This document shows positions 45,728 to 60,651 of a DNA stretch of 64,000 nucleotides, one piece after another. Numbering within the stretch: position 1 is the stretch's first letter; the number at the start of each line of letters is the position of its first letter. The stretch lies in the NCBI RefSeq assembly GCF_988242995.1, contig NZ_OZ547043.1; one strand, 5' to 3'. The translations under genes and the position numbers were made by a program. Under the pieces are notes generated by a model. The model was not told the DNA's origin and did not search any database. It saw only the letters and a list, made by a program, of their open reading frames with translations.

Positions 45728-47194
45728 TCAGGAGCCCAGACGGTAGTTCGGGGACTCTTTAGTAATGGTCACGTCGTGAACGTGGCTTTCCTGAATGCCC
45801 GCACCGCTGATACGTACAAACTCCGCTTTAGTACGCAGTTCGTCGATAGTACCACAGCCGGTCAGCCCCATACAGGAGCGCAGGCCGCCCATCTGCTGGT
45901 GAATGATCTCTTTCAGGCGACCTTTATAGGCCACGCGACCTTCGATACCTTCCGGCACCAGTTTGTCGGCAGCGTTGTCGCTCTGGAAGTAACGGTCAGA
46001 AGAACCTTTGGACATCGCGCCCAGGGAACCCATACCACGGTAAGATTTGTAAGAACGGCCCTGGTAGAGTTCGATTTCACCCGGAGATTCTTCAGTACCT
46101 GCCAGCATGGAACCCACCATCACCGCGCTTGCGCCTGCGGCGATAGCTTTGGCGATATCGCCTGAGAAACGGATACCGCCGTCAGCGATAACCGGAATAC
46201 CGGTGCCTTCCAGGGCTTCTACTGCATCAGCAACGGCGGTGATCTGTGGAACACCGACGCCAGTCACGATACGAGTCGTACAGATAGAGCCAGGGCCGAT
46301 ACCGACTTTAACCGCGCTGCAACCAGCTTCTGCCAGAGCGCGTGCCCCCGCAGCTGTTGCCACGTTGCCGCCGATGATTTGCAGATCCGGATATTTAGCA
46401 CGAGTTTCACGGATACGCTGCAGAACGCCTTCAGAGTGACCGTGAGAGGAGTCGATCAGCAGAACGTCAACGCCTGCGGCAACCAGCGCGTCAACACGCT
46501 CTTCGTTACCCGCACCCGCGCCAACCGCTGCACCAACACGCAGACGGCCTTGCTCGTCTTTACAGGCGTTCGGTTTACGTTCTGCTTTCTGGAAATCTTT
46601 CACGGTGATCATGCCGATCAGGTGGAATTCGTCATCAACCACCAGCGCTTTTTCAACGCGTTTTTCGTGCATTTTTGCCAGCACAACTTCACGGGCTTCA
46701 CCTTCACGCACGGTGACCAGACGTTCTTTCGGCGTCATGTAAACGCTAACCGGCTGGCTCAGGTCGGTAACAAAACGTACGTCACGACCGGTGATAATAC
46801 CCACCAGTTCGTTTTCTTCGGTAACGACCGGGTAGCCCGCAAAGCCGTTACGCTCGGTCAGTTCTTTCACTTCGCGCAGCGTCGTGGTTGGCAGAACAGT
46901 CTGCGGGTCAGTCACCACGCCAGATTCGTGTTTTTTCACACGGCGAACTTCTTCCGCCTGGCGTTCAATGGACATATTTTTGTGGATAAAGCCGATACCG
47001 CCTTCCTGAGCCAGAGCAATAGCCAGGCGCGCTTCCGTTACGGTATCCATTGCTGCGGAAAGCATAGGGATATTCAGACGAATAGTTTTCGTCAGCTGGG
47101 TGCTGAGGTCAGCAGTATTCGGCAGAACGGTAGAATGTGCAGGAACGAGGAGAACGTCGTCAAACGTCAGAGCTTCTTTAGCGATACGTAGCAT
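45728..47194 (-). CDS. guaB: IMP dehydrogenase
   Basis: ORF 45728..47263; start at [16 protein letters not shown] (488 aa). Confidence 0.95.
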
Positions 47195-47246
47195 GGGCAA
47201 TATCTCGACCAGAGTGGTTAATAAATATTGCCGCGGCATTATACAG

Positions 47247-47263
47247 AGCGTAACCGATTGCAT
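47247..47263. promoter_or_regulatory. Putative PurR box in guaB promoter/leader region
   Basis: Minus-strand atgcaatcggttacgct, a PUR-box-like imperfect palindrome ~55 nt upstream of guaB start. Confidence 0.55.
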
Positions 47264-47325: not shown

Positions 47326-48732
<1,407 letters not shown>

Positions 48733-48791: not shown

Positions 48792-51700
48792 TTACTGGAA
48801 GCAGGTCACCAGACCCGGTTTATTCATTAGCGTGATACTACAATCCTGTGCTCCAGTGCCTTCGTCCATTCCACACTGTTGAGAGGACAAATAAGGAAAA
48901 CTTGGTGAAGACGGCCATCCCAGTGAATTAAAAACAGTGTGCAACAACTCTAATTCATTGTATGTCGGTGCATTTTCTATGCTGCCACACTGCCTTGCAA
49001 TATCCCATTTACTGGCATCAATGATATGTGCAGAAGCCCAGTTTTCGTAGTTAATAATCGGTGAGGATACGGGATTAGCCCCGGACGGCAATTCTGTCGT
49101 TAACAACGGTCGATGTAGCGATTTACCATTCACCACTACAGTGTCTGCCATATGTCCCCAAAAGTGCGCCGAGGAAACATTCGGGCTGGTTGGTACCGTA
49201 AAAATAGCGTCCAGCGTGTCTGTCGCGGAAGCGTAATTAGCCAGAGTAACCGTCAGTGGCGTTTTATAACCAGGGGTATTATCCTGGCGGAGCGTAAAAC
49301 TTGCCGTCCCATCCGCGCCTGTCATGCCACTAATGGTATTACCGCTTTCACTCAGCGTAACAGCCGAACCAGATAACGGCTGAACGATGAGATCGTCCAT
49401 CGCCACCACATCACCATACAACGTCGCCCCAGCGTTACGCGGCGATGCATCGCCACGTTTCAAAGTAAATTCCACATTCGGTACCGTATTCCCGGCGCTG
49501 TCTTTCACCGTCACGGTAACGGGCATGGCTTCGCCTTTTTTCACTTTCGCCGCCTGAATAGCTGCGTCAAACGCTGTTGAGGTCAGTGTGACGCTGGAAA
49601 CCGTTGCGCGCGCAGACACCAGACACGCCTGATAAGCGGCATTACCATTCAATGTCGTTGTGCCATCTTTCATATTGAGCGACTGATTTTTACCATCTGT
49701 AGTCTTATCCTGCGCCCACCAGTAATAATAAACTGACCAGCCAGTTTCCGTCGTAAGGGTGTTATTGGGATAACGTTGATACAGTGACTTCATATCGCTG
49801 AGCAACGGTTGCCGGGCTTCCTCACAAGGGCTGAGGCTGGCATTTGCTTTAGTGGTTGACGAAAAATAGGGCCAGTCCTCATTATTGTTATTGGTTTTAT
49901 TTACCCCGGAGGTCGATGGCAGCTCCTTCCACAATTTCGGTCGTTCAAAGACGGTTCCATTTGCCGCTGTCACCGTTTCTGGCATATGACCCCAGTAGTC
50001 GGCATCCTGGGCGTCAGGGCTGGTGACCACGGTAAATATCAGGTCCAGGTTTGACGTGATCTGCGGATCTTGTGCAAGCGAGACCGTAAACGGCGTTGCC
50101 AGGCCGGTGGTGGCGTTTTGCGTAACATTGAACGTCACTGTGCCATCACTGCCGGTAAAACCAAGCCATTTTGCCGTATCCTGAGCAAAGGAAATACGGG
50201 TTGCTGTCGGTGTGACGACATCTACAATAAGATCATCTGCCGACGATGAGGGCCTAATTCCTGAACGACTTTTCGCCTGCGCCCGCTGAAGCGTCACGCT
50301 CTCGCCACTCAGCAGGTTGCCATTTTGGTCTTTTACTGTCACGACTAACGGGATTGTCTCGCCCTTTTTCGCCGATGCCGAAGGTGTACCGCCGTTACTG
50401 GCGGTTTTCGTCTCATCAAATGCTATTGAAGTCAGGGTAACGCTTGACGGCTTAGAGTGAGGCTGTGCCAGGCAGAGCATTAGAGCAACCGGAGAGAGTG
50501 CGGATGATACTCGTCCCGTACTTAGGTTAAAGACCTGATAATACCAGGAGCTACCATTGGAGTTAAGCAATTCATAAATCCACCAGTTTCCTGACGCTAT
50601 CGGCAACCCCAGATCTTTCGTTAACGCCCCGTTTGGGTGATCGTCATATAACCCCTGCAATTCGCTGAGGCGCGGTTGATATTCCAGCGAACAATCTGCC
50701 GTCGCTTTTTGAGTACTATATATATATGACCATGTCTCATTATTACCGTTTACCGAGCTCCCCGTAGTCGCTTCCGCTGCCAGTAATGGGCGCTTGAAGG
50801 TCACGCCTGCCGAACTGGTAAACGTTTCCGGCATATGGCCCCAGTATTTCGCTTTTGGCGAATCCGGGCTGGTTATCACCGTGAAAATGACATCCAGCGT
50901 GACGCTTTTCGAGGTATCGCGCATGAGTTCTGCGCTGAGCGGCGTTGACAGCCCATAACTGCTATTCTGGCTGACCTCAAACGTAGCTTTACCATCGCTC
51001 CCTGTCTTCAGGAGAGCCTGCGTCCCATCCCCATACAAGATTGACGTTACCCCAGTAGGTTCCACAGGTATGATGGTAAGATCATCTGCAGAAGCATCGT
51101 ACGCAGCTTTAGCGCGGTTCAGCGCAGTCCCTCGTTTAAGGTTAAAGCTGGCACCTGGCAGTGGATTGCCTGCGCTATCTCGCACCGTAACCGTCATCGG
51201 GATAACCTCTCCCTTCTTCGCTGTTGCGCTGGGCCTGCCATCATTGCTGGCCGTTTTCGTTGCATCCTCCGCCGTTGAGGTCATTTCAATAGAAGCCGCC
51301 TCTGGATGAGGGTTTACCAGGCACAGCATTAATGCCGAGGTGCTTGAAGACGCTCTTCCACTTGATCCATTTAACAGATAAATATATTGATCGTACCAGT
51401 TACCCGCATATGCCACCATGTCGTAAGCCCACCAGTAGCTATTTACCGGAATACCCAGATCGGTCTTTATCGCACGACTTGGGTGTTCGTCGTACAATGC
51501 CTGTAGTTCGCTTAACAGTGGTTGATAATGTACATCGCACCCGCTTTTATCGATATCCCCCTTTGTTGCCGATCTCAACACGGCCCACTCTTCATTGTCT
51601 TCTATAAACGACTGGCCCGACGATCTTTCAGCAGAGAGTAAGGGGCGTTTGAAGGCAGTACCAGAACGCGTAGTGAACGTTTCCGCCATATGCCCCCAGT

Positions 51701-54700
51701 AACTTGCCAGGGGGGTATCCGGGCTGGTTATCACGGTAAACATCACGGGTAATTTGTTGGATTCCAGGCTCGACTGATAGGCCTGAGCGTACACATTGGT
51801 TACCAGGCCTATAGAATCATCCTGCTTTACCGTAAACGTGGCTGTCCCGTCTGCACCTGTCACCGCATAAAGGGAGATTGATGGAGTATCCACTCTTGCC
51901 GACGTTCCCGCTGCGTTGATTACAGTGATAGTTCTGTTCGACAACTGTACATTCTGGCGATTTGTCGATCCTTCACGTTTGAGAATAAACGGAACATTTG
52001 GTACGACATTTCCCTGCGCATCTTTTGTCACCACGCGAATCACCGCGTCGTCACCTTTTTTCCGTTTTAGTGCGCTGAGGGTTTCGTCAACTTTGACAAA
52101 TTGTGTCGCATCGTTCGCTTCAACAATAATGTGGCTGGTCACCGCCACTGGGGTAGCCCGACAACTTAGCAGTCCTAGACTGCTTGACATGACCTCCGTT
52201 CCATCACCCGTTTTTAACGAAACCGCTTTAAAATTAAATGTTTGAGTGTAATAGGCAACAACCGTACTGGAGATATAGGCGCGTGATACAGGCCATCCCG
52301 TAACGTCATGTATTGGCACGTAACCTTCATCGGCATACAGTGACTCCAGCTCACTTTCAATCGGGACATATCCTGCACCGCAACCATTTACAGATGTGTT
52401 GTTCGACTGGTCCGGCGAGAACAGTGACCAGCTCTCTCCATCTTCCTGAAAAGAGCTTCGACTGGTTGTAACGGAAAGCTCATCTTGCAATAACGGTCTT
52501 TTATAAATAAGCCCGCCTGCACCGGTCATCGTTTCGGCCATATGCCCCCAGAATTTTGCTTTAGGGGTATCGGGGCTGGTTATCACCGTAAAGACCACCG
52601 GAAGCATTGATTTTACGTTATTATCTGTATCCAGCATGGCGGTCAGTTCGGTTTTTAAACCCGTGGTATTGTCCTGTTTCAGTGCAAGTGTTGTCGTACC
52701 ATCTGCGCCGGTAACGCCATAAATCAGTGCTGTTGTTGAGGAAAAATTACTCTGCGTGTTACCCCAGGCATCCGTCACGATGAGCGCGCCTGCTGTCACC
52801 GTTGTAGACGCATTTGCCCGATTGACGCTAAGGTTACGTTTAAGCGTAAACGCGGTATTTCCCACCGGGTTACCCTGCGAATCTTTAGTGGTCACGCGAA
52901 CCACGACTTCTTCCCCTTTTTTCGCTTTGACAACATTATTCGTACTGTCAAATTTCGCGGGGTCCGCAGCCTCAAGAACGATTTGGCTTGCCTTGACGAT
53001 CGGCGTCGTCTGGCAGGTAAGCAGTTCTTTTGTGGCCGATGGAATTATCGAACTGGTGCCTGAACTGAGATTGACGGCCTTGAAGTCACGCTGTTCCAGA
53101 CTACTGCTGCCTGTCGTGCTGGAAAGGTAACTTGAGGCGACGGGCCAGCCCTGAACCGTTTTCATCGCATTGCCGCGGTTGGCTTCATACAATGACTCCA
53201 GCCCGGCCTGGGAGGGAACATATTCACTACCACAACCATTAGAGGATGTGCTTGTCGCCTGAGTTTGGGTAAATTGCGCCCAGTCCTCATTATCTTCTGC
53301 AATCGCTGTTCGACCCGACGTACTGGATAACTCTTTCAACAATAATGGGCGTTTAAAGACCGTTCCATCCACAGCCGTCACCGTTTCAGGCATATGCCCC
53401 CACATTTTCGCCTTATCGCTGTCCGGGCTGGTGACAACGGTAAAAATGGTATCGAGGGTCGCTTTTTTCGTTGTGTCTGAATAGAGCGCGGCGGTCAGCG
53501 ACGTTTTTGTGCCATGGGTATCCGGGCGGGTAATAGTGAGAATTTTAGTGCCATCGCTGCCGGTCATCGCGCTGTATGCTGCGGCGGTATCATTGAGCGA
53601 AGTTTCATCCGCCAGGCCACTATTGATCACAACCGGCGCAACCAGCGCATCACCGCTACCGGCAATGTGTTTTTCGTTTGATCGGGTATAACCATCGCCA
53701 CGCTTCAGCGTAAAAGGCATATCACCCAATGGATTGCCCTGAGCATCTTTTACCGTCACCTTCACCTGTAGCGTTTCGCCTTTTTTCAGCTTCGCCGCAT
53801 TTGCTGCCGCGTTCCACTGCGCCGGGTCCACCACTTCCAGCGTAATGCTGCTGGCAGGATTGTTAGCCGTCGTCAGGCAACTGACATAAACCGCCGTGCT
53901 ACCGCCAATGGTCCGCGCGCCATCGTTGAGGGCTATGGTGTAGTAATGCGGCACCTGATCCGCGGGCGAACTGCTCCAGTAGGGCTGACGCTGCGTTGGC
54001 CAACCGTGTACCGTTTGAACGGCGTTACCGCTGTTAGCATCATAGAGCGCGTTAAGCTGGGAACGGCGTGGGAGCATATTGGCACCACAGCCACCTTTAC
54101 TGGTGCTGGAAGTGTTGGCCTGGCTAACGCGCGACCACACTTCGTTATTTTCCGTTAATGTGCCGTCCGGGCTGAACACTTCCGCAGCCAGCCGGGGTCG
54201 GGCAAAGGTTAATGCATCGACGGTAATCGTCTCATCCATATGACCCCACATCTGCGCGCCAACCGCATCCGGACTGGTGAGCGTAGTGAAAATCACATTG
54301 TAATTAACAGTATTGGGAATATAGGAGTTTACAGGCGCAATATTCAGCGGCGTCGCTAAGCCCACACCTTGCGGTTGCTTAATTTCCACAGTAGCAAAAC
54401 CCTGCGCATCCGTAGTACCTGCATAGACTAAAGACGGTTGCGATGTTCCGTAGAGCGTGCCATTCATCTCGATTGCGCCGCGGGTTGGATCATCGAAACC
54501 CGTGCTCTGCCCCTGACGATTTTTCCCCATATCTTTAGTGATGGTGAACGCGGTATACGGCACGGGCGCATTACTCAAGGCATTAAAGGTGCGTACCGTC
54601 ATGGTAATCGTTTCACCCACTTTAGCCTGCGCTCTGCTGCTTGTGGAAACATCATGATCGGTGGTCGCAGCAATCTGGGCGACCATCTCATTGCCCGAAC

Positions 54701-56834
54701 AAGAAAGGTAGTTTTGCTTAAAGCCGGAATAGGTGTCGATGTTGCCCGTGGCCAGGTTCACCGACGCGTGCGACGTCTCTTCCACCGCACTAAGATACGC
54801 TTTTTGCAACGTTGGCCAGCCATATTCGGTGCCGATGACATTGGCTGGATGTGCGGCAAACAAACTGTGCAATGAGCTTTGGCTCGGAATATGACCTAAA
54901 CCACACTCAGCCTGCATACTGCTATTCTGATCAAACAGCGCCCAGTCTTCGTTATTTTCCCGCACTGCTCCCAGTTCGTTGTCGGTTTCATCCGCCAGCC
55001 GTGGGCGTTTAAAGATATTATTCGCTTCAATAATGCCTAACATATGTCCCCACATCCGCGCTTTGTCGGAATCAGGGCTGGTGATCACCGTAAAAATAAC
55101 GTCTTTCTCATCCGAGGCGGTAAAATCACTGCGCATTTTCGCGGTGATGTGTGTTTTCACCCCCACGCCGCCTGGCTGGGTCAGCGTCAGAGAGGCCTCT
55201 CCGTTAGCATCAGTGATCCCTTCATAGGTATGGGCGTCAACTTTGCGAACGTTACTGCCACCATCAATTTGTACCGGGTGCGTCTCCCACGCAGCGTCAG
55301 TTTGATTCTTACGGTTAACACCGTCATCCAGATGCAGCGAAAAGTAGTAGTAAGCCAGCGGCTGATCGTTGTTCTTGCTATCGGTAATCGTCAGGCGTAA
55401 AGAAGCCTCTTCCCCCACCTTTACTTTCATCGCTTTTATCGTCGAATCATAACTGCCCGGCGTCAGTACCAGCTTCGGTTCAACATCGGGCGCTTCTTTA
55501 TCGACACAGCTCACAATAAACGTCGTATCGTCCGGTTTTTGCGCTTCGCTGCGGTTCGAAACATCCGCCGCATGGTGCTGGCCGCTCATCCCCGCCAGTG
55601 ATGACCAGTAGAAATTACCCTGCATCGGCCAACCAGCCACATCCTGCACTGACGTTGGCACCACCGTCGCCAGCGCACCGAAATGACGCATTCCGGGCAA
55701 AATGTCGCAATGTTTATCCGCGCCGCTCCAGGTAAAGGTGGACCAGGTTTCATTGTGATCGTTAACCGTACCGTCTTCATTATCGACTTCCGCCGCCAGT
55801 TTTGGTCGACTAAAAGTGTAATCACGGGCCTTCAGCGTATCGGGCATATGACCCCACATTGTAGCCTGCGGGACATCCGGGCTGGTGAGGACGGTAAAGA
55901 TCACTGCCGTTTCACTGGCCTGAGCAATACCCGCGAGGCTCGCGACCAACGGCGTTTTTACACCAGGGCCGTTGGCCTGGGTGACCGTAACCGTGGCAAC
56001 ACCATTCGCATCAGTAGTACCACGATATTCCGTCGCGGTGGTGGTTAATTCGGTCGTGCCCAGTTTTACCGGCGCAGTATTGTTCACCACACCCTGGCGG
56101 TTTTCAGCATCTTTGCGTTTGATAACAAAAGGAATATTCCCCACAACATTACCGACGCAATCTTTGGTGGTGACCGTTAACGTGATACTGCCGCCAACCG
56201 TCGTTTTCGCCGCACCGGAGGATTCGTCATAGCCCGCGGCGCTGACGGAAATAAGGTCACCCTGCGCGGGCGCAATCTTCAGCGTCACTTTCTGATCGGC
56301 GAGGGTCAGAACACTTTCATAGGGATAGCCCGTCGAGGTAAGTAGATATAACAGCGGCATGGTCTGCTGGGGGTCTGGCTGCGCCCAGGCGATCAGCGAA
56401 CGCCCGGCAAGGCCCTGTGCGCAAAATGAGCGATCTGCGACTGGCTGTGGGTCCAGTAAGGTGTCCGGCGTCGCGGCATCCGCCCAAACTAAAGATACTG
56501 TCGGTGGCGTTTGGTTTTCCCAACGTGGTGTGGCAATGATATCGCCTTCTCTGTCTTGCGGGTTGGTGACGAGCAATTTAGAGACGCTAACATCCGCGCT
56601 GAATTCACTCGGTTTAGCGGTAAACGCTACCTCATTCGTCTTTGCAGGATCCAGAAAGACACTGCCCTGGTAGACGGGTATGCTGGCACTGTCGGCGGTG
56701 GGCACGGTACCGTTAAATTCGCCGACCGTATCTGAAGAGTCTTGCCATGCAGATTCTGCCCATGACCACCCAGGCAGCATTGCGCTTATCAGCAATGCGC
56801 ATAACACAAGGATTTTATTCAGGGTCAGGGACAT
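48792..56834 (-). CDS. Giant (2680 aa) secreted Ig-like repeat protein, RatA/RatB-like; signal peptide followed by nine tandem ~280-aa modules
   Basis: Single uninterrupted ORF; N-terminal signal peptide [26 protein letters not shown]; nine copies of the motif FTV(I/V)TSPD...(M/F/Y)WGHM; GGAG RBS 9 nt upstream. Confidence 0.85.
49000..56100. repeat. Nine diverged tandem DNA repeats (period ~800-855 bp) inside the giant gene
   Basis: Plus-strand core catatg(n)cccca (= WGHM codons) recurs at ~49148, 49983, 50832, 51686, 52539, 53391, 54237, 55041, 55846. Confidence 0.8.
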
Positions 56835-56881
56835 GACAGAAACTCCACCGGTTGTTAAACGGACGCTTGTCGCATCAACAT

Positions 56882-56910
56882 ATTTTGCTTAATCCGGGAT
56901 TAAGCAAAAT
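56882..56910. promoter_or_regulatory. 29-bp perfect palindrome between sinI-like gene and giant gene (candidate operator or RNA structure)
   Basis: ATTTTGCTTAATCC-G-GGATTAAGCAAAAT: 14-bp arms with a 1-nt centre. Confidence 0.5.
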
Positions 56911-56919
56911 ATGCGGAAA

Positions 56920-56943
56920 CAGCATTCCCTTGCGGGAATGCTG
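56920..56943 (-). terminator. Stem-loop 12 nt after sinI-like stop (candidate attenuator / partial terminator)
   Basis: 10-bp stem cagcattccc/gggaatgctg, 4-nt loop, followed on the mRNA strand by UUU. Confidence 0.45.
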
Positions 56944-56954
56944 CTGAGTACGCG

Positions 56955-57932
56955 TTATTTGTGTTTGTAAATAATGTGAAGTTTGTAACCCTGTACCCCG
57001 TCGCCGTTTGTCGGAATGGTAAGAGCCTCTTTACCATCGCGCGCAGGACCGTTAAGGTTGGTTCTGGCCTCGTCGTTGGTCGCAGGGATGGCCAGATTGT
57101 TATTATCGAAGCTTGAGTTAACGATACCACCCGAAGTGCCGAGCTGCTGGCTGCTGCCAGAAAGTACCCAACGGAAGTCATAATTGGCGGTAACGTCAGC
57201 ATCGGTACCCGCATCAAACTTGCCGTTTTTGTTCTCATCCGAGTAAAGTTTGGCCACGTAGGTTTTGCCAAGTTCGATTGGCGTGCTGCCGTTGATAAGG
57301 TTGATACTGGTACCATCAACAAAGATGGCGACTTTCAGGTTCTGGTTAACCACCGGCCCTGGCGCAACGTTATCGCTGTCGCTTCCGCCGCCGTCGGCAG
57401 TAGAAACGTCATAAAGATGCAGCGCAGTCCCGACGTTTGGCGTACCGGTCTGCGTGGTTGGCGTAATTTCAATACCGATATAACGACCACGGTCGTCATC
57501 GGTAAGAGTGTAACTGGTCACCTTCGTTGCCAGCTCTTTTGGATCGTTACCCTGAGCGTCCTTGTAGCTCATCCAGCGGATAGTATCGATAGTCTTTGCG
57601 TTATCGCCCAATCCCCCAAGATCCACGTCGCCTTCGGTATCACCAATTTCCCAACTTACGGTTAATTTATCACCCGAGTAAAGACGCTTGTCCGTTTCAC
57701 TACCTGTCGGGCGAGCGCCTTTTAGATCAGAAGTCAACGTTACATGGTCGGCATCTGTCGTAGCGCTTCCCCCTTCCGAATAGAGCCACGGAATGGTTCC
57801 CTGGAAAATATTGGTTTCGCCGCTTTCGACCCAGGCGCTTTCTTCCGCCAGCGCCACAGGTGCCACACAATAACCTGCCAATGCCAGCGCCAATGCGATC
57901 CGGGTCAGACCGCGTCTTTTATCCTGCTTCAT
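56955..57932 (-). CDS. sinI: SinI-like secreted protein (CS54-island sivI homolog)
   Basis: 325-aa ORF with signal peptide MKQDKRRGLTRIALALALAGYCVAPVALA; AGGAGA RBS; C-terminal ~110 aa resemble the C-terminus of the adjacent SinH-like protein. Confidence 0.8.
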   Translation of the reverse strand: MKQDKRRGLTRIALALALAGYCVAPVALAEESAWVESGETNIFQGTIPWLYSEGGSATTDADHVTLTSDLKGARPTGSETDKRLYSGDKLTVSWEIGDTEGDVDLGGLGDNAKTIDTIRWMSYKDAQGNDPKELATKVTSYTLTDDDRGRYIGIEITPTTQTGTPNVGTALHLYDVSTADGGGSDSDNVAPGPVVNQNLKVAIFVDGTSINLINGSTPIELGKTYVAKLYSDENKNGKFDAGTDADVTANYDFRWVLSGSSQQLGTSGGIVNSSFDNNNLAIPATNDEARTNLNGPARDGKEALTIPTNGDGVQGYKLHIIYKHK

Positions 57933-57986
57933 TGATGCTCTCCTTAATGAACCTTCAGCGACTGGCCGACTGGCCTTACGCCAATC

Positions 57987-60164
57987 TTATTTTTTGGTAT
58001 ACAGCACGCGTAAACCGTATCCCTGCAAGCCATCTCCCGCTTGTGCGCCATAGGTTTGCGCTGCTTCGCGGTTAGTGGCCGGAATCACAATGTCCTCATT
58101 GGAAGTGTTCGCCTGTGCACCCACTTCACCATTGATGCTCTTGCCGGTAAATTCCCACTTGTAGTCGTACTGCGCCATCTCTTCGTCAGTCAGTTTTTCG
58201 ACCTGCTGGAAGACACCGTCTTTATTGCTGTCACGCCACAAAACAAATCGATAAGTGTTGTTGAGCGGCAGCGGTTCTTTATCTTTACCTATCAGGTTGC
58301 TGGGTTTAGCTGCCCCCACACGATAGATAAATGCATTTAGCCCACCAATTTCTGCCCCGAGGAAAGTGACATCCACATAGTTACTGTCGTCGTAGGGCGC
58401 AGCTTTTGCTTTCCAGCGATAGGTGCCGGGTAAGGTACTGGAGAGGGTGACAGTGCCCTTTTCTTTATCTTGTTTAGCGATAAAAACGCAGGGGTTGTCG
58501 GTCGAGCAAGGCTTGTTGGTTAACGTCACTCGTTTGTCCTGCGCGTCGTAAAGCTGCGGCGTGAGGTTATCTTCCGGCAGCGCATCGCCATTGCGGTCGG
58601 TGTTATCGCCAAAGCTGTCGGTTACATCGAGATCCATCACCACACCATCAACGCCATCTGCCTGAGCGCTGGCTTCGTGGCTGTGGTTGTTCTCTTCCGG
58701 CACGTTCGCGATGTTATTAACAATCAACTCTATTTTACGGTCCTGCTGAACGGTGATTTCCACCACGCCAGAGTTCTGTCGGTTGCCCTTTTCATCTTCC
58801 AGTGCCAGACGTACTCGCCAGGTATTGAGTTTTTCTTGTTCGGCTTTGTCAGAGCTGTACTGCCAGGCGGGCAGCACCAGGTTCCAGTGGTTATTGTTAC
58901 CCTCTGTCAGGGTATTCTCTTTGATAACCGGCATAACCAACGTGCGGGCAGCATTGTTTTTCGCCTGCCATGACGCAGCGACAATTTTGTAGTGGTGGTT
59001 GATAAGCGCGTTAATGGTCCATTTACATTTTTCCAGCCCGACGGCCGCTTCGGGAGTGTCCTTAATGACGCACTCAGGGTGCTCGTTGGTGGCATCCGCT
59101 TTTAACCACAGGGTGACATCAAGCGGATCTTTTTCTTTGTATTCCAGAACAATAAAGTTATTACGCTCAACAAAATCATGACGACTGCCCATCAACGAGT
59201 GAGCCGCTTTCACTTTATCGCTATCCAATTGATCTTTTAGCGGAACGCCGAACTGATAATTAAGAGTGGCATTAATGCTGACATCGCTGTTATCTCCGGT
59301 CCCCGCTTTATAGTCCGCCCCAACGGTTAGTAATGGCACCGGTTGATAATTCAGTCCAAGTGTTACCGCGTAGGGATCTTTCTCCAAATTATCCGTACCA
59401 AAAAGGGCGACTTCATCGCCGTAATATTGCTCGAAGACAACTTTGCCCCCCAGTTGCGGATAAGAAGGTAACCAGGCTTCGGCACGAATATCCCAGCCGC
59501 GCGCAGGGCGTTCTTCATAAAAGTCGAAATCTTCAGAGTCTTTCCAGTCAGAAAGCGGATGATAATAGTTGCCAGAGAATTTTAAATAATCAGTCCACGC
59601 TTCGCCGCCTAAACCTAAACGGCGATGTCCTCGGGTAAAATCATAATCATAAAATATATTTCCGCCCAATAACCATTCATCAAAATTATGTCTTACCCCA
59701 AGACCAATATTCCCGATTGTACGATCTTCTTTTCGTTGCGCAGAAAATTGACTGAAATAAACAGTGGTTTGATTATCGTACCAGGGAACAAAATAATCGA
59801 TGGAACTACCATCCAGATCGCCGTCCTGGCCAATGGAGAGGTTCGAACGGACCTTACCGTAGGGAGAGAGTGTGTCTTCAATATAAGATTGTGCGGTTGA
59901 GGTGATTTGACTTTGCAGATAGCTTCTGGCCTGAGATTCCAGCGCCTCAGGGGTCAAGTTTTCAAACCCTTGCGTGGCGGAGTTGATGACGTAATCGGCT
60001 CCGCGCTCTTTCAGCGATTTACCCTTGTTGGTTTGTTCATCCTGCTGTGCTGCCTGGCTACCTAAATCAGGTAACGATTCGTTTTGCTTAACATTTATCT
60101 CTGGTGCCGCGAAAGCAGCACCAGAGATAAATGTTAGCATAATACAGCGTTTCCATCGCAGCAT
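57987..60164 (-). CDS. sinH: Intimin/invasin-family inverse autotransporter (type Ve), SinH-like
   Basis: ORF 57987..60194; start chosen at ATG 60164 giving signal peptide MLRWKRCIMLTFISGAAFA; beta-barrel translocator signature (GGNIFYDYDF...LGLGGEAWTDYLKFSGNYYH) followed by passenger domains. Confidence 0.85.
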   Translation of the reverse strand: MLRWKRCIMLTFISGAAFAAPEINVKQNESLPDLGSQAAQQDEQTNKGKSLKERGADYVINSATQGFENLTPEALESQARSYLQSQITSTAQSYIEDTLSPYGKVRSNLSIGQDGDLDGSSIDYFVPWYDNQTTVYFSQFSAQRKEDRTIGNIGLGVRHNFDEWLLGGNIFYDYDFTRGHRRLGLGGEAWTDYLKFSGNYYHPLSDWKDSEDFDFYEERPARGWDIRAEAWLPSYPQLGGKVVFEQYYGDEVALFGTDNLEKDPYAVTLGLNYQPVPLLTVGADYKAGTGDNSDVSINATLNYQFGVPLKDQLDSDKVKAAHSLMGSRHDFVERNNFIVLEYKEKDPLDVTLWLKADATNEHPECVIKDTPEAAVGLEKCKWTINALINHHYKIVAASWQAKNNAARTLVMPVIKENTLTEGNNNHWNLVLPAWQYSSDKAEQEKLNTWRVRLALEDEKGNRQNSGVVEITVQQDRKIELIVNNIANVPEENNHSHEASAQADGVDGVVMDLDVTDSFGDNTDRNGDALPEDNLTPQLYDAQDKRVTLTNKPCSTDNPCVFIAKQDKEKGTVTLSSTLPGTYRWKAKAAPYDDSNYVDVTFLGAEIGGLNAFIYRVGAAKPSNLIGKDKEPLPLNNTYRFVLWRDSNKDGVFQQVEKLTDEEMAQYDYKWEFTGKSINGEVGAQANTSNEDIVIPATNREAAQTYGAQAGDGLQGYGLRVLYTKK
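60089..60136. repeat. Perfect 19-bp inverted repeat (10-nt spacer) inside the sinH signal-peptide coding region
   Basis: taacatttatctctggtgc (60089-60107) ... gcaccagagataaatgtta (60118-60136); also creates a mirror-image ORF on the plus strand. Confidence 0.9.
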
Positions 60165-60194
60165 GCACTTTCCCTGTGACAATGATACAGTCAA

Positions 60195-60373
60195 AAATAA
60201 GCTTTAATATTGTATCCCTGATTATTCAGAAAGGCATGTCATAAAGAATAAATATATTCTTAATTATTTAAATTAGTGATTTCACTCAATTACATTAGTT
60301 ATTCCACTAATAACAGATTGTTTTACCATTCACATATTAAATATAAATGATAAAACAATATATTCACATGATA
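60195..60373 (-). promoter_or_regulatory. AT-rich promoter/leader region of the sinH-sinI-giant operon
   Basis: ~180 bp of strongly AT-rich non-coding DNA immediately upstream of sinH. Confidence 0.5.
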
Positions 60374-60589
60374 TTAAGCAATAACAAATTCAACGCGTTT
60401 TTTAGATATTAAATCGTGCCCATGTTGGCAGAAATAATCCACAGCACCACAAGCTTTTAACACTTGTAACGGCTGATGACACTCAGGGCAAAGTGCCTGG
60501 ACGGTAAAGTCTTTGTCGCAAGTTGCACAGTGGGCAGTCTCGCCATTGCGTTCGAGAGGGGTTTTGCAGGTTGGACAGTTGAGTGCCAT
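60374..60589 (-). CDS. yfgJ: Zinc-ribbon protein YfgJ (DUF1407)
   Basis: 71-aa ORF with two CPxC...C/H zinc-ribbon pairs (CPTCKT..CATCDK; CPECHQ..CQHGH). Confidence 0.88.
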   Translation of the reverse strand: MALNCPTCKTPLERNGETAHCATCDKDFTVQALCPECHQPLQVLKACGAVDYFCQHGHDLISKKRVEFVIA

Positions 60590-60651
60590 AAATACTCCTC
60601 GCGCGTTATTCGGTTTCCCTTTCCGTGTGGAAAGGGAAACCAGATAAGTGA

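Follow-up and report, generated by a model that had tools for sequence, protein, structure and literature searches.

The window analysed here, a 64,000-nt stretch of contig NZ_OZ547043.1 (RefSeq assembly GCF_988242995.1), carries three genes between xseA and yfgJ: sinH, sinI and a ratA-like gene. Together they are the known Escherichia coli ila cluster (sinH-sinI-ratA), the three-gene core of the Salmonella CS54 island; the island has already been described and is not new. Over 13.7 kb the window was 99.4% identical to E. coli Ecol_316, for which RefSeq lists the same three products. Genes, order and chromosomal site were those of the locus known as the ila cluster, the IatB locus or the xseA..yfgJ region of extraintestinal and avian pathogenic E. 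coli (ExPEC and APEC), with no essential difference, and the window represents one allele of ila. The region called ‘GR 17 xseA..yfgJ’ in a 2026 genome paper is this same cluster of sinH, sinI and ratA, derived from CS54; the E. coli orthologue of SinH was named IatB (Goh et al. 2019), and SinH has been developed as a vaccine antigen (Xing et al. 2023). A preliminary description of this DNA had already proposed a match to the ExPEC sinH locus, which the literature indeed knows as ila or IatB and as the source of the SinH vaccine target. Overall, we favour with moderate confidence an explanation in which this known locus would encode a SinH-centred adhesion system under RNA control and would be old at its present site. 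An N-terminal box shared by the partner proteins, a structured RNA motif between sinI and ratA, a hairpin in sinH and the divergence of sinI and ratA alleles were not found described in the accessible literature, and we regard them as modest leads.

An open reading frame (ORF) scan reproduced the three intact, co-directional minus-strand genes reported earlier: sinH (= iatB; 57987-60164, 725 aa from its ATG), sinI (56955-57932, 325 aa) and the ratA-like gene (48792-56834, 2680 aa). NCBIfam supported all three, as did the RefSeq annotation of a 99.4%-identical E. coli genome. The cluster is flanked by xseA (47356-48732, plus strand) and yfgJ (60374-60589, minus strand). The short gaps noted before, 54 nt between sinH and sinI and 120 nt between sinI and ratA, were both seen, as was a Shine-Dalgarno-like sequence before the start codon of each gene. 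In the mechanical ORF list, sinH begins further upstream at a TTG (60194; 735 aa); we preferred the ATG at 60164 because the RefSeq annotation and the NCBIfam SinH model, which begins at residue 11 of the 735-aa ORF, agree on the 725-aa protein. The 209 nt between the yfgJ stop and the sinH start (60165-60373, minus strand), presumed to hold the sinH promoter, were AT-rich as stated previously (GC 0.244). A consensus promoter scan returned sites at or below the chance level (9 versus 13.3), with nothing above chance for the sinH promoter.

Direct comparison with S. enterica (der-yfgJ-sinH-sinI-ratA-ratB) and S. bongori (der-yfgJ-sinH-sinI-ratA-xseA) bore out the proposed match to CS54. That island (shdA-ratB-ratA-sivI/sinI-sivH/sinH) occupies the same yfgJ/xseA site, keeps the same sinH-sinI-ratA order and carries the same sinI-ratA RNA element. 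The full 25-kb CS54 of S. enterica subsp. I has shdA and ratB, both missing from the window, which with its three genes resembles the short form of S. bongori. Further differences lay in the proteins and in the RNA. SinI was 44-47% identical to the Salmonella representatives and the RatA N-terminus ~49% identical to that of S. bongori, compared with 74% identity reported for E. coli IatB and Salmonella SinH (Goh 2019). RatA comprises nine repeat units here and 1865 aa in S. enterica, and the hairpin at the 5′ end of sinH, present here, has no counterpart in Salmonella.

SinH matched the NCBIfam equivalog NF033423 at 1487.2 bits (cut-off 999) over model positions 1-730 of 730, and its barrel (59157-59978, minus strand) matched Pfam IAT_beta at E 4e-109 and, among solved structures, the invasin and intimin barrels 4e1t (E 4e-73) and 4e1s (E 1e-64). 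On these matches, SinH is an intimin-like type Ve (inverse) autotransporter with an intimin/invasin-type barrel, the identity given to it in the preliminary description.

The identity proposed for SinI likewise held, with 336.7 bits against NCBIfam NF040711, the SinI family (cut-off 165). The protein consists of a signal peptide of ~29 aa, an N-terminal module and a SinH-like C-terminus, encoded by a gene 54 nt downstream of sinH, and a Pfam scan found no domain and no barrel in it. Signal peptides of SinI and RatA were read by eye as hydrophobic leaders. SinI residues 211-325 were 36% identical to SinH residues 623-725 (E 9e-13; encoded at 57990-58298, minus strand), pointing to the SinI C-terminal domain as a paralogue or copy of the last SinH domain. 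A weak match to ZirU_fam covered residues 69-210 (E 6.5e-7) and reached 29.7 bits against a cut-off of 100. The AlphaFold2 model (pLDDT 84.4) showed two β domains; profile searches identified no solved relative and no significant neighbour in the Protein Data Bank (PDB), and Foldseek returned only generic matches resembling immunoglobulin (Ig) or fibronectin type III folds, all above E 1e-3. Residues 19-22 in the signal peptide (57867-57878, minus strand) read A-G-Y-C and were invariant or nearly so across 97 family members, the cysteine being the only one in the protein. We considered this motif as a lipobox and rejected it as non-canonical, with Tyr at position −1.

The third product, named ‘adhesion domain-containing protein’ in RefSeq, matched NCBIfam NF011844 along its full length at 5394.7 bits (cut-off 3870), which upheld the RatA/RatB-like assignment made before. 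It is a barrel-less repeat adhesin with a signal peptide of ~26 aa. From residue 214 to residue 2680 (48795..56195, minus strand), it consists of nine tandem units of 268-285 aa, each marked by a TSPD...WGHM motif and two conserved cysteines, in which the Pfam domains BIg21 (DUF823) and InvE_AD (DUF824) alternate; the Big_1 domains suggested earlier were replaced by this pair. The unit equals the Ig-plus-adhesion module that forms the extracellular tip of Yersinia pseudotuberculosis InvE (PDB 5n40), and RatA strings together nine copies of it. None of the three proteins matched a PADLOC defence model. Among the surveyed proteins, P0127, P0132 and P0146-P0148 came from megabase-size assemblies and were pieces of the RatA N-terminus with frameshifts, which reflect either true ratA pseudogenes or long-read homopolymer errors.

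SinI, RatA and RatB all begin, directly after the predicted cleavage site, with a common box, (LKSG)xWQ..ST..I(N/Q)GT(V/P)P, followed ~50 aa later by D.EGD. In the window, the module of RatA extends from the signal-peptidase site through residues 27-101 (56532..56756, minus strand), with AWQ..S.T..FNGTVP as box 1 and D.EGD as box 2. When 21 and then 97 SinI-family proteins were aligned, W34, T40, G45 and P48 were invariant immediately after the signal peptide. The N-termini of RatA-family proteins carried the box, (A)LK(S/G)GxWQ....ST..I-N-G-T-(V/P)-P with D-x-E-G-D ~50 residues on, in 25 of 25 loci examined. A joint alignment of SinI and RatA N-termini (A7) retained an invariant G, P, D and D. 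Comparison of the SinI family with RatA N-termini by hhalign gave 90.8% probability (E 1.2e-6) over 74 columns, aligning SinI 31-105 with RatA 26-101; with deeper alignments the match covered only residues 9-50 (87%, E 3.9e-6, ~40 columns), and we dropped the claim of a 75-residue homology as not reproduced.

Buttiauxella SinI-like proteins and the unrelated-looking products of a third gene also had the N-terminus ...TG..(V/L)(N/S)GT(V/P)P together with D.EGD. That third gene, which follows sinI in Buttiauxella (L023:10808-11974, L024:11429-12691), encodes ~360-420 aa with the box but another body, in which a Big_2-like motif and a C-terminus that looks lectin-like by eye were noted. By its sequence, it suggests that the box may be attachable to other cargo. 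Searching 1.84 billion representative proteins with a profile of the module produced 77 matches, the strong ones all at the extreme N-terminus of proteins of 296-2708 aa. All ten of the matches that were classified were RatA/RatB-like or SinI-like, which gave no support to the module as a widespread secretion tag. It appears instead to be a hallmark of a small set of partner proteins, a pattern that fits an address or docking role and is not evidence of one.

The gap between sinI and ratA contains a structured element (56864..56953, minus strand) of two covarying hairpins whose fold has a minimum free energy (MFE) of −49.7 kcal/mol (z = −6.7 against shuffles). Hairpin 1 (56920-56943, minus strand; CAGCAUUCCC-GCAA-GGGAAUGCUG, then UUUCC) is GC-rich and, with the UUU(U)CC that follows it, terminator-like. 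Hairpin 2 (56879-56913, minus strand) has perfect 17-nt arms containing UUUGCUUA/UAAGCAAA in the upper stem and is followed by GUUGA. This architecture recurred in 20 of 21 loci from several genera; Leminorella clearly keeps hairpin 1 only. RNAalifold predicted 28 pairs in the gap, of which 12 show compensatory changes; its frequent G-U pairs can form on the sense strand only. A covariance model (R1) built from 16 sequences found exactly one sense-strand match per sinI-ratA locus and none elsewhere in 564 kb, the rest of the window included, with much weaker antisense scores. It also recognised loci on which it had not been trained, scoring 85 bits in S. enterica, 84 in S. bongori, 42-57 in three further loci (L008, L017 and L025) and 24.9 in Leminorella (L019). 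Rfam 15 had nothing in the gap. The consensus terminator scan gave about the chance number of sites (15 versus 14.0) and missed the conserved terminator-like hairpin, whose U-run is interrupted. We also considered a ratA promoter at the conserved GUUGA and rejected it: it is followed by no usable −10 and lies only ~40 nt from the start codon. The preliminary description had taken the three genes for probably one operon. According to a 2025 review, sinH and sinI are co-transcribed, which agrees with it for these two genes, but ratA lies beyond the conserved hairpin in the 120-nt gap, behind a terminator that is probably leaky and a second element. At one locus (L008:4553-4850, Escherichia sp. 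E1V33), an insertion with palindromes that look by eye like repetitive extragenic palindromes (GCCTGATGCG...CTTATCAGGCCTAC) lengthens the gap to 296 nt; it sits between a duplicated hairpin 1 and hairpin 2.

A second structure lies within the signal-peptide codons of sinH (60085..60140, minus strand; CUAACAUUUAUCUCUGGUGCUGC-UUUC-GCGGCACCAGAGAUAAAUGUUAAG), beginning 25-29 nt after the ATG. Codons 9-25 form a stem of 22-25 bp with an MFE of −40.7 kcal/mol, coinciding with an inverted repeat (I1) whose 22-nt arms are 95% complementary. Synonymous recoding of the segment gave a mean of −20.7 kcal/mol (sd 5.6), and only one of 5000 recodings reached the native value. The hairpin was kept in all Escherichia alleles. 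E. albertii has G-C and C-G in place of A-U and U-A pairs, an exchange that alters two amino acids, and one E. coli allele has a G-U pair in place of U-A. Pseudocitrobacter has a stem of different sequence at this position, and Salmonella and most Citrobacter have no hairpin. Across 13 sequences, 84% of cells were paired compared with 36-45% in slid controls, nine pairs changed on both sides, and none of 500 shuffles reached the covariation score. We regard this covariation as supportive rather than conclusive, because the structure was derived from one of the sequences and the sequences are related. Rfam 15 gave only a sub-threshold match to a miRNA precursor (28 versus 90 bits). The hairpin is a possible RNase III substrate or translation gate. 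LeuO overexpression raised iatB mRNA ~15-fold in SMS-3-5 with no detectable protein (Goh 2019), an outcome that a post-transcriptional gate would fit.

With coverage of at least 80% as the threshold, 1740 of 5426 complete E. coli genomes (32%) had sinH, which fell into identity classes of ~99, 96, 92, 86 and 82%. The remaining genomes had an empty site, and the flanks matched in all but one of the 5426. Inspection of the xseA-yfgJ junctions thus showed the variable presence that had been expected; K-12 derivatives are among the genomes with the empty site, and this gene content is not common to all E. coli. Among published strains, sinH was found in 98% of phylogroup B2, 100% of F and G and 67% of D, and in no A/B1 commensals (Xing et al. 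2023). The sinI gene, present in 1691 genomes, was sharply bimodal: 927 genomes carried it at ≥95% nucleotide identity, the allele class of the window, and 753 at only ~67%. Among E. coli and its closest relatives, amino-acid identity was 72-100% for SinH and fell to 42-45% for SinI and 42-53% for RatA, compared with 99-100% for GuaB and Der. Within E. coli alone, sinI and ratA alleles were as low as ~45-53% identical at the amino-acid level, compared with 100% for GuaB and Der.

The same order, der-yfgJ-sinH-sinI-ratA-xseA-guaB, was found in S. bongori, several Citrobacter, Pseudocitrobacter, Superficieibacter, E. albertii, E. whittamii and other Escherichia, and in S. enterica with ratB added (a survey of one genome per species plus two look-ups, for S. 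enterica and S. bongori). Leminorella carries the sinH-sinI-ratA trio outside the xseA-yfgJ context, and Buttiauxella has sinH-sinI with its different, box-bearing third gene. No tRNA gene was present at 40000-64000 in the window, and no flanking direct repeats or insertion sequence (IS) elements at the cluster; annotation shows no genes but sinH, sinI and ratA between xseA and yfgJ, and none of the features that mark a mobile island (tRNA, integrase, IS elements, repeats) was seen. The composition of 48.8–60.4 kb, singled out for comparison in the preliminary description, was close to that of the flanking genes: GC was 0.508 in the cluster versus 0.520, and GC at third codon positions (GC3) was 0.54-0.55 in ratA and sinI and 0.54-0.56 in guaB, xseA, der and bamB. 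Only the 209-nt region upstream of sinH was AT-rich, and base composition did not mark the cluster as mobile.

At the empty site, xseA and yfgJ converge with a 4-bp overlap, free of scar or cluster remnant. In the occupied haplotype, sequence divergence extends beyond the genes. Identity to an empty-site genome declines stepwise (81%, 78%, 59% and 55%) over the last ~350 nt of xseA (48400..48732, plus strand), stays low through yfgJ (56-74% nucleotide identity), the allele of which is linked to the occupied haplotype like the divergent xseA end, and recovers only at ~60736. The span of 48792-60373 assigned to the island earlier was right for its genes, but the divergent segment is wider, from ~48400 to ~60736. 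XseA has 458 aa here and 456 aa at the empty site. Its C-terminal peptide is shared with island-bearing E. coli and Pseudocitrobacter, and the K-12-type end, ...EDGWIESEV, matches Salmonella and Citrobacter. YfgJ is 65% identical in amino-acid sequence to the K-12-type protein of the empty site and 82-99% identical to those of other island-bearing Escherichia; K-12-type YfgJ is closest to Pseudocitrobacter.

Taken together, these results are consistent with a scheme in which SinH, SinI and RatA would act as one surface adhesion system. SinH would be inserted by the β-barrel assembly machinery (BAM) and display its own Ig-like passenger, and SinI and RatA would cross the inner membrane by Sec. 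SinH could then recognise them through the shared N-terminal module, either exporting them, as ZirT does ZirS, or docking them on its passenger, with RatA supplying nine adhesion domains for multivalent binding. Transcription would start in the AT-rich, LeuO-responsive region upstream of sinH under the control of LeuO and H-NS; in Escherichia, the 22-25 bp hairpin in the first codons would gate sinH post-transcriptionally, and the leaky terminator and second hairpin after sinI would lower or separately control ratA. The route of SinI and RatA to the surface is inferred. Barrel-dependent export of a co-encoded barrel-less protein has its precedent in ZirS and ZirT (Gal-Mor 2008), and export of SinI and Rat-like proteins by SinH, as ZirT exports ZirS and ZirU, has been proposed (Heinz 2016). 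As at the present locus, Salmonella ZirT/ZirS/ZirU pairs an intimin/invasin-family barrel with Sec-dependent barrel-less proteins that resemble its passenger. Unlike the cluster described here, the Zir system has no giant repeat protein; SinI falls below the ZirU family cut-off, and the proteins classified in the box profile search were RatA/RatB-like and SinI-like only. Classical two-partner secretion (TpsA/TpsB, for example FHA/FhaC) offers an analogy alone, with a large Sec-dependent exoprotein, an N-terminal signature and an adjacent barrel gene; in the cluster, the barrel is that of an inverse autotransporter rather than Omp85/POTRA, the box is unrelated to the TPS domain, and Ig/adhesion units take the place of a β-helix.

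The chief competitor of this scheme, which we consider rather unlikely, holds that SinH is a self-sufficient adhesin and that SinI and RatA are merely linked to it, staying in the periplasm as chaperone-like Ig proteins or leaving by vesicles or type II secretion, with the box an ancestral structural remnant. IatB was detected on the cell surface by immunofluorescence and promoted biofilm formation in K-12 by itself, without the downstream gene (Goh 2019); antibodies against the SinH passenger protect mice, which implies that the passenger is outside the cell (Xing 2023); and periplasmic Ig-fold proteins are common (Heinz 2016). This account has to face the retention of the trio across more than seven genera and two genomic contexts, the make-up of RatA from nine copies of a module that is the extracellular tip in InvE, and the invariant position of the box at the start of the mature chain in proteins of 296-2708 aa. 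We also weighed the possibility that both RNA structures lack a specific regulatory role, the gap being a terminator with a stabilising hairpin and the sinH hairpin a by-product of a conserved signal peptide. Hairpin 1 with its U-run does resemble an ordinary intrinsic terminator, the IatB signal sequence is highly conserved (Goh 2019), and synonymous recodings already fold well, as their mean energy indicates. Against these stand the UUUGCUUA/UAAGCAAA stem and GUUGA, invariant or nearly so in five aligned genera while the base of the same stem covaries, the two amino-acid changes in E. albertii by which two base pairs are preserved, and the rarity of recodings that match the native sinH fold; we consider the absence of any such role less likely than not. 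Several points weigh against our own scheme. Dependence of partner secretion on the barrel protein has been shown only for ZirS and ZirT; a type Ve barrel presumably has its own passenger linker in the channel (Heinz 2016), and because of this occupancy the export of a folded, disulfide-containing protein of 2680 aa is hard to picture. The biofilm result indicates that the partners are not needed for SinH display, deeper alignments shrink the region shared by SinI and RatA to the signal peptide plus ~20 residues, and SinI appears at best related to the ZirU/ZirS families rather than a member of them. A plasmid, pIatB, presumably including the hairpin, gave protein when overexpressed (Goh 2019), and the hairpin is not an absolute block. 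Finally, the ends of XseA and YfgJ are mosaic, with K-12 types resembling other genera, a pattern that would fit either polarity, gain or loss.

This polarity bears on a reading in line with the preliminary description, in which ExPEC lineages would have acquired a pathogenicity island horizontally at an ancestral xseA|yfgJ junction. The difference between occupied and empty sites on which it drew is real, and it gains from the lack of the cluster in 68% of complete E. coli genomes, from its reported absence in phylogroups A and B1 (Xing 2023), from published descriptions of the cluster as horizontally acquired, from the AT-rich upstream region and from an empty site that is scar-free with its 4-bp gene overlap. 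Against insertion, no tRNA, integrase, IS element or flanking repeat accompanies the cluster, its GC and GC3 are near those of its neighbours, the same site is filled in S. enterica, S. bongori, Citrobacter, Pseudocitrobacter, Superficieibacter, E. albertii and E. whittamii, and divergence runs into xseA and yfgJ, as expected for homologous replacement of a haplotype. The cluster is not a classic mobile island, and we judge its insertion in ExPEC lineages to have a fairly low probability. With this position filled in at least five genera and no sign of mobility, we rate loss or allelic replacement in the K-12 lineage no less likely than insertion. We therefore prefer an old locus at this site, where whole haplotypes, the empty one included, would be exchanged by homologous recombination and the K-12-type empty site would reflect loss or replacement rather than the ancestral state.

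The locus matters in several respects. SinH is at present a candidate for an ExPEC vaccine, and most bloodstream and urinary infections are caused by the phylogroups that the cluster marks. Partner alleles down to 45% identity within one species, nine invasin-tip modules in RatA and apparent RNA gating bear on the choice of antigen and may partly account for the difficulty of detecting the native protein in culture; the locus also bears on whether inverse autotransporters can export separate substrates. We think it improbable that the cluster holds three unrecognised signals at once, namely a factor-bound motif in the gap, a hairpin gate in sinH and an N-terminal box acting as an address tag. 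If it did, a specific factor would recognise the invariant UUUGCUUA/UAAGCAAA stem and set the RatA:SinH ratio, the sinH hairpin, as an RNase III substrate or translation block, could explain LeuO-induced mRNA without protein, and the box would define a true two-partner branch of type V secretion, one that can cope with a protein of 2680 aa.

A few minor observations concern the surroundings of the cluster and the sequences compared with it. At its N-terminus, the guaB ORF (45728-47263, minus strand, 511 aa) is 23 residues longer than the annotated protein of 488 aa, an artefact of ORF calling. Two contigs probably represent mis-binned E. coli DNA: a 3.1-kb contig binned as ‘Collinsella sp.’ (L003, JAIJJM010000381.1), with sinH-sinI-ratA 98-100% identical to the window, and a metagenome-assembled ‘Citrobacter sp.’ contig (L022, DXKH01000025.1) with E. 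coli-like GuaB (100%) and XseA (98%). The junction between der and yfgJ is also variable: five loci from several Citrobacter and Superficieibacter (L007, L010, L011, L013 and L014) carry ~2.8-4.9 kb of extra DNA there. In the window, the der-yfgJ intergenic region contains a hairpin (60606-60647) with 19-nt arms that are 89% complementary, and a different hairpin occupies this position in the empty-site haplotype.

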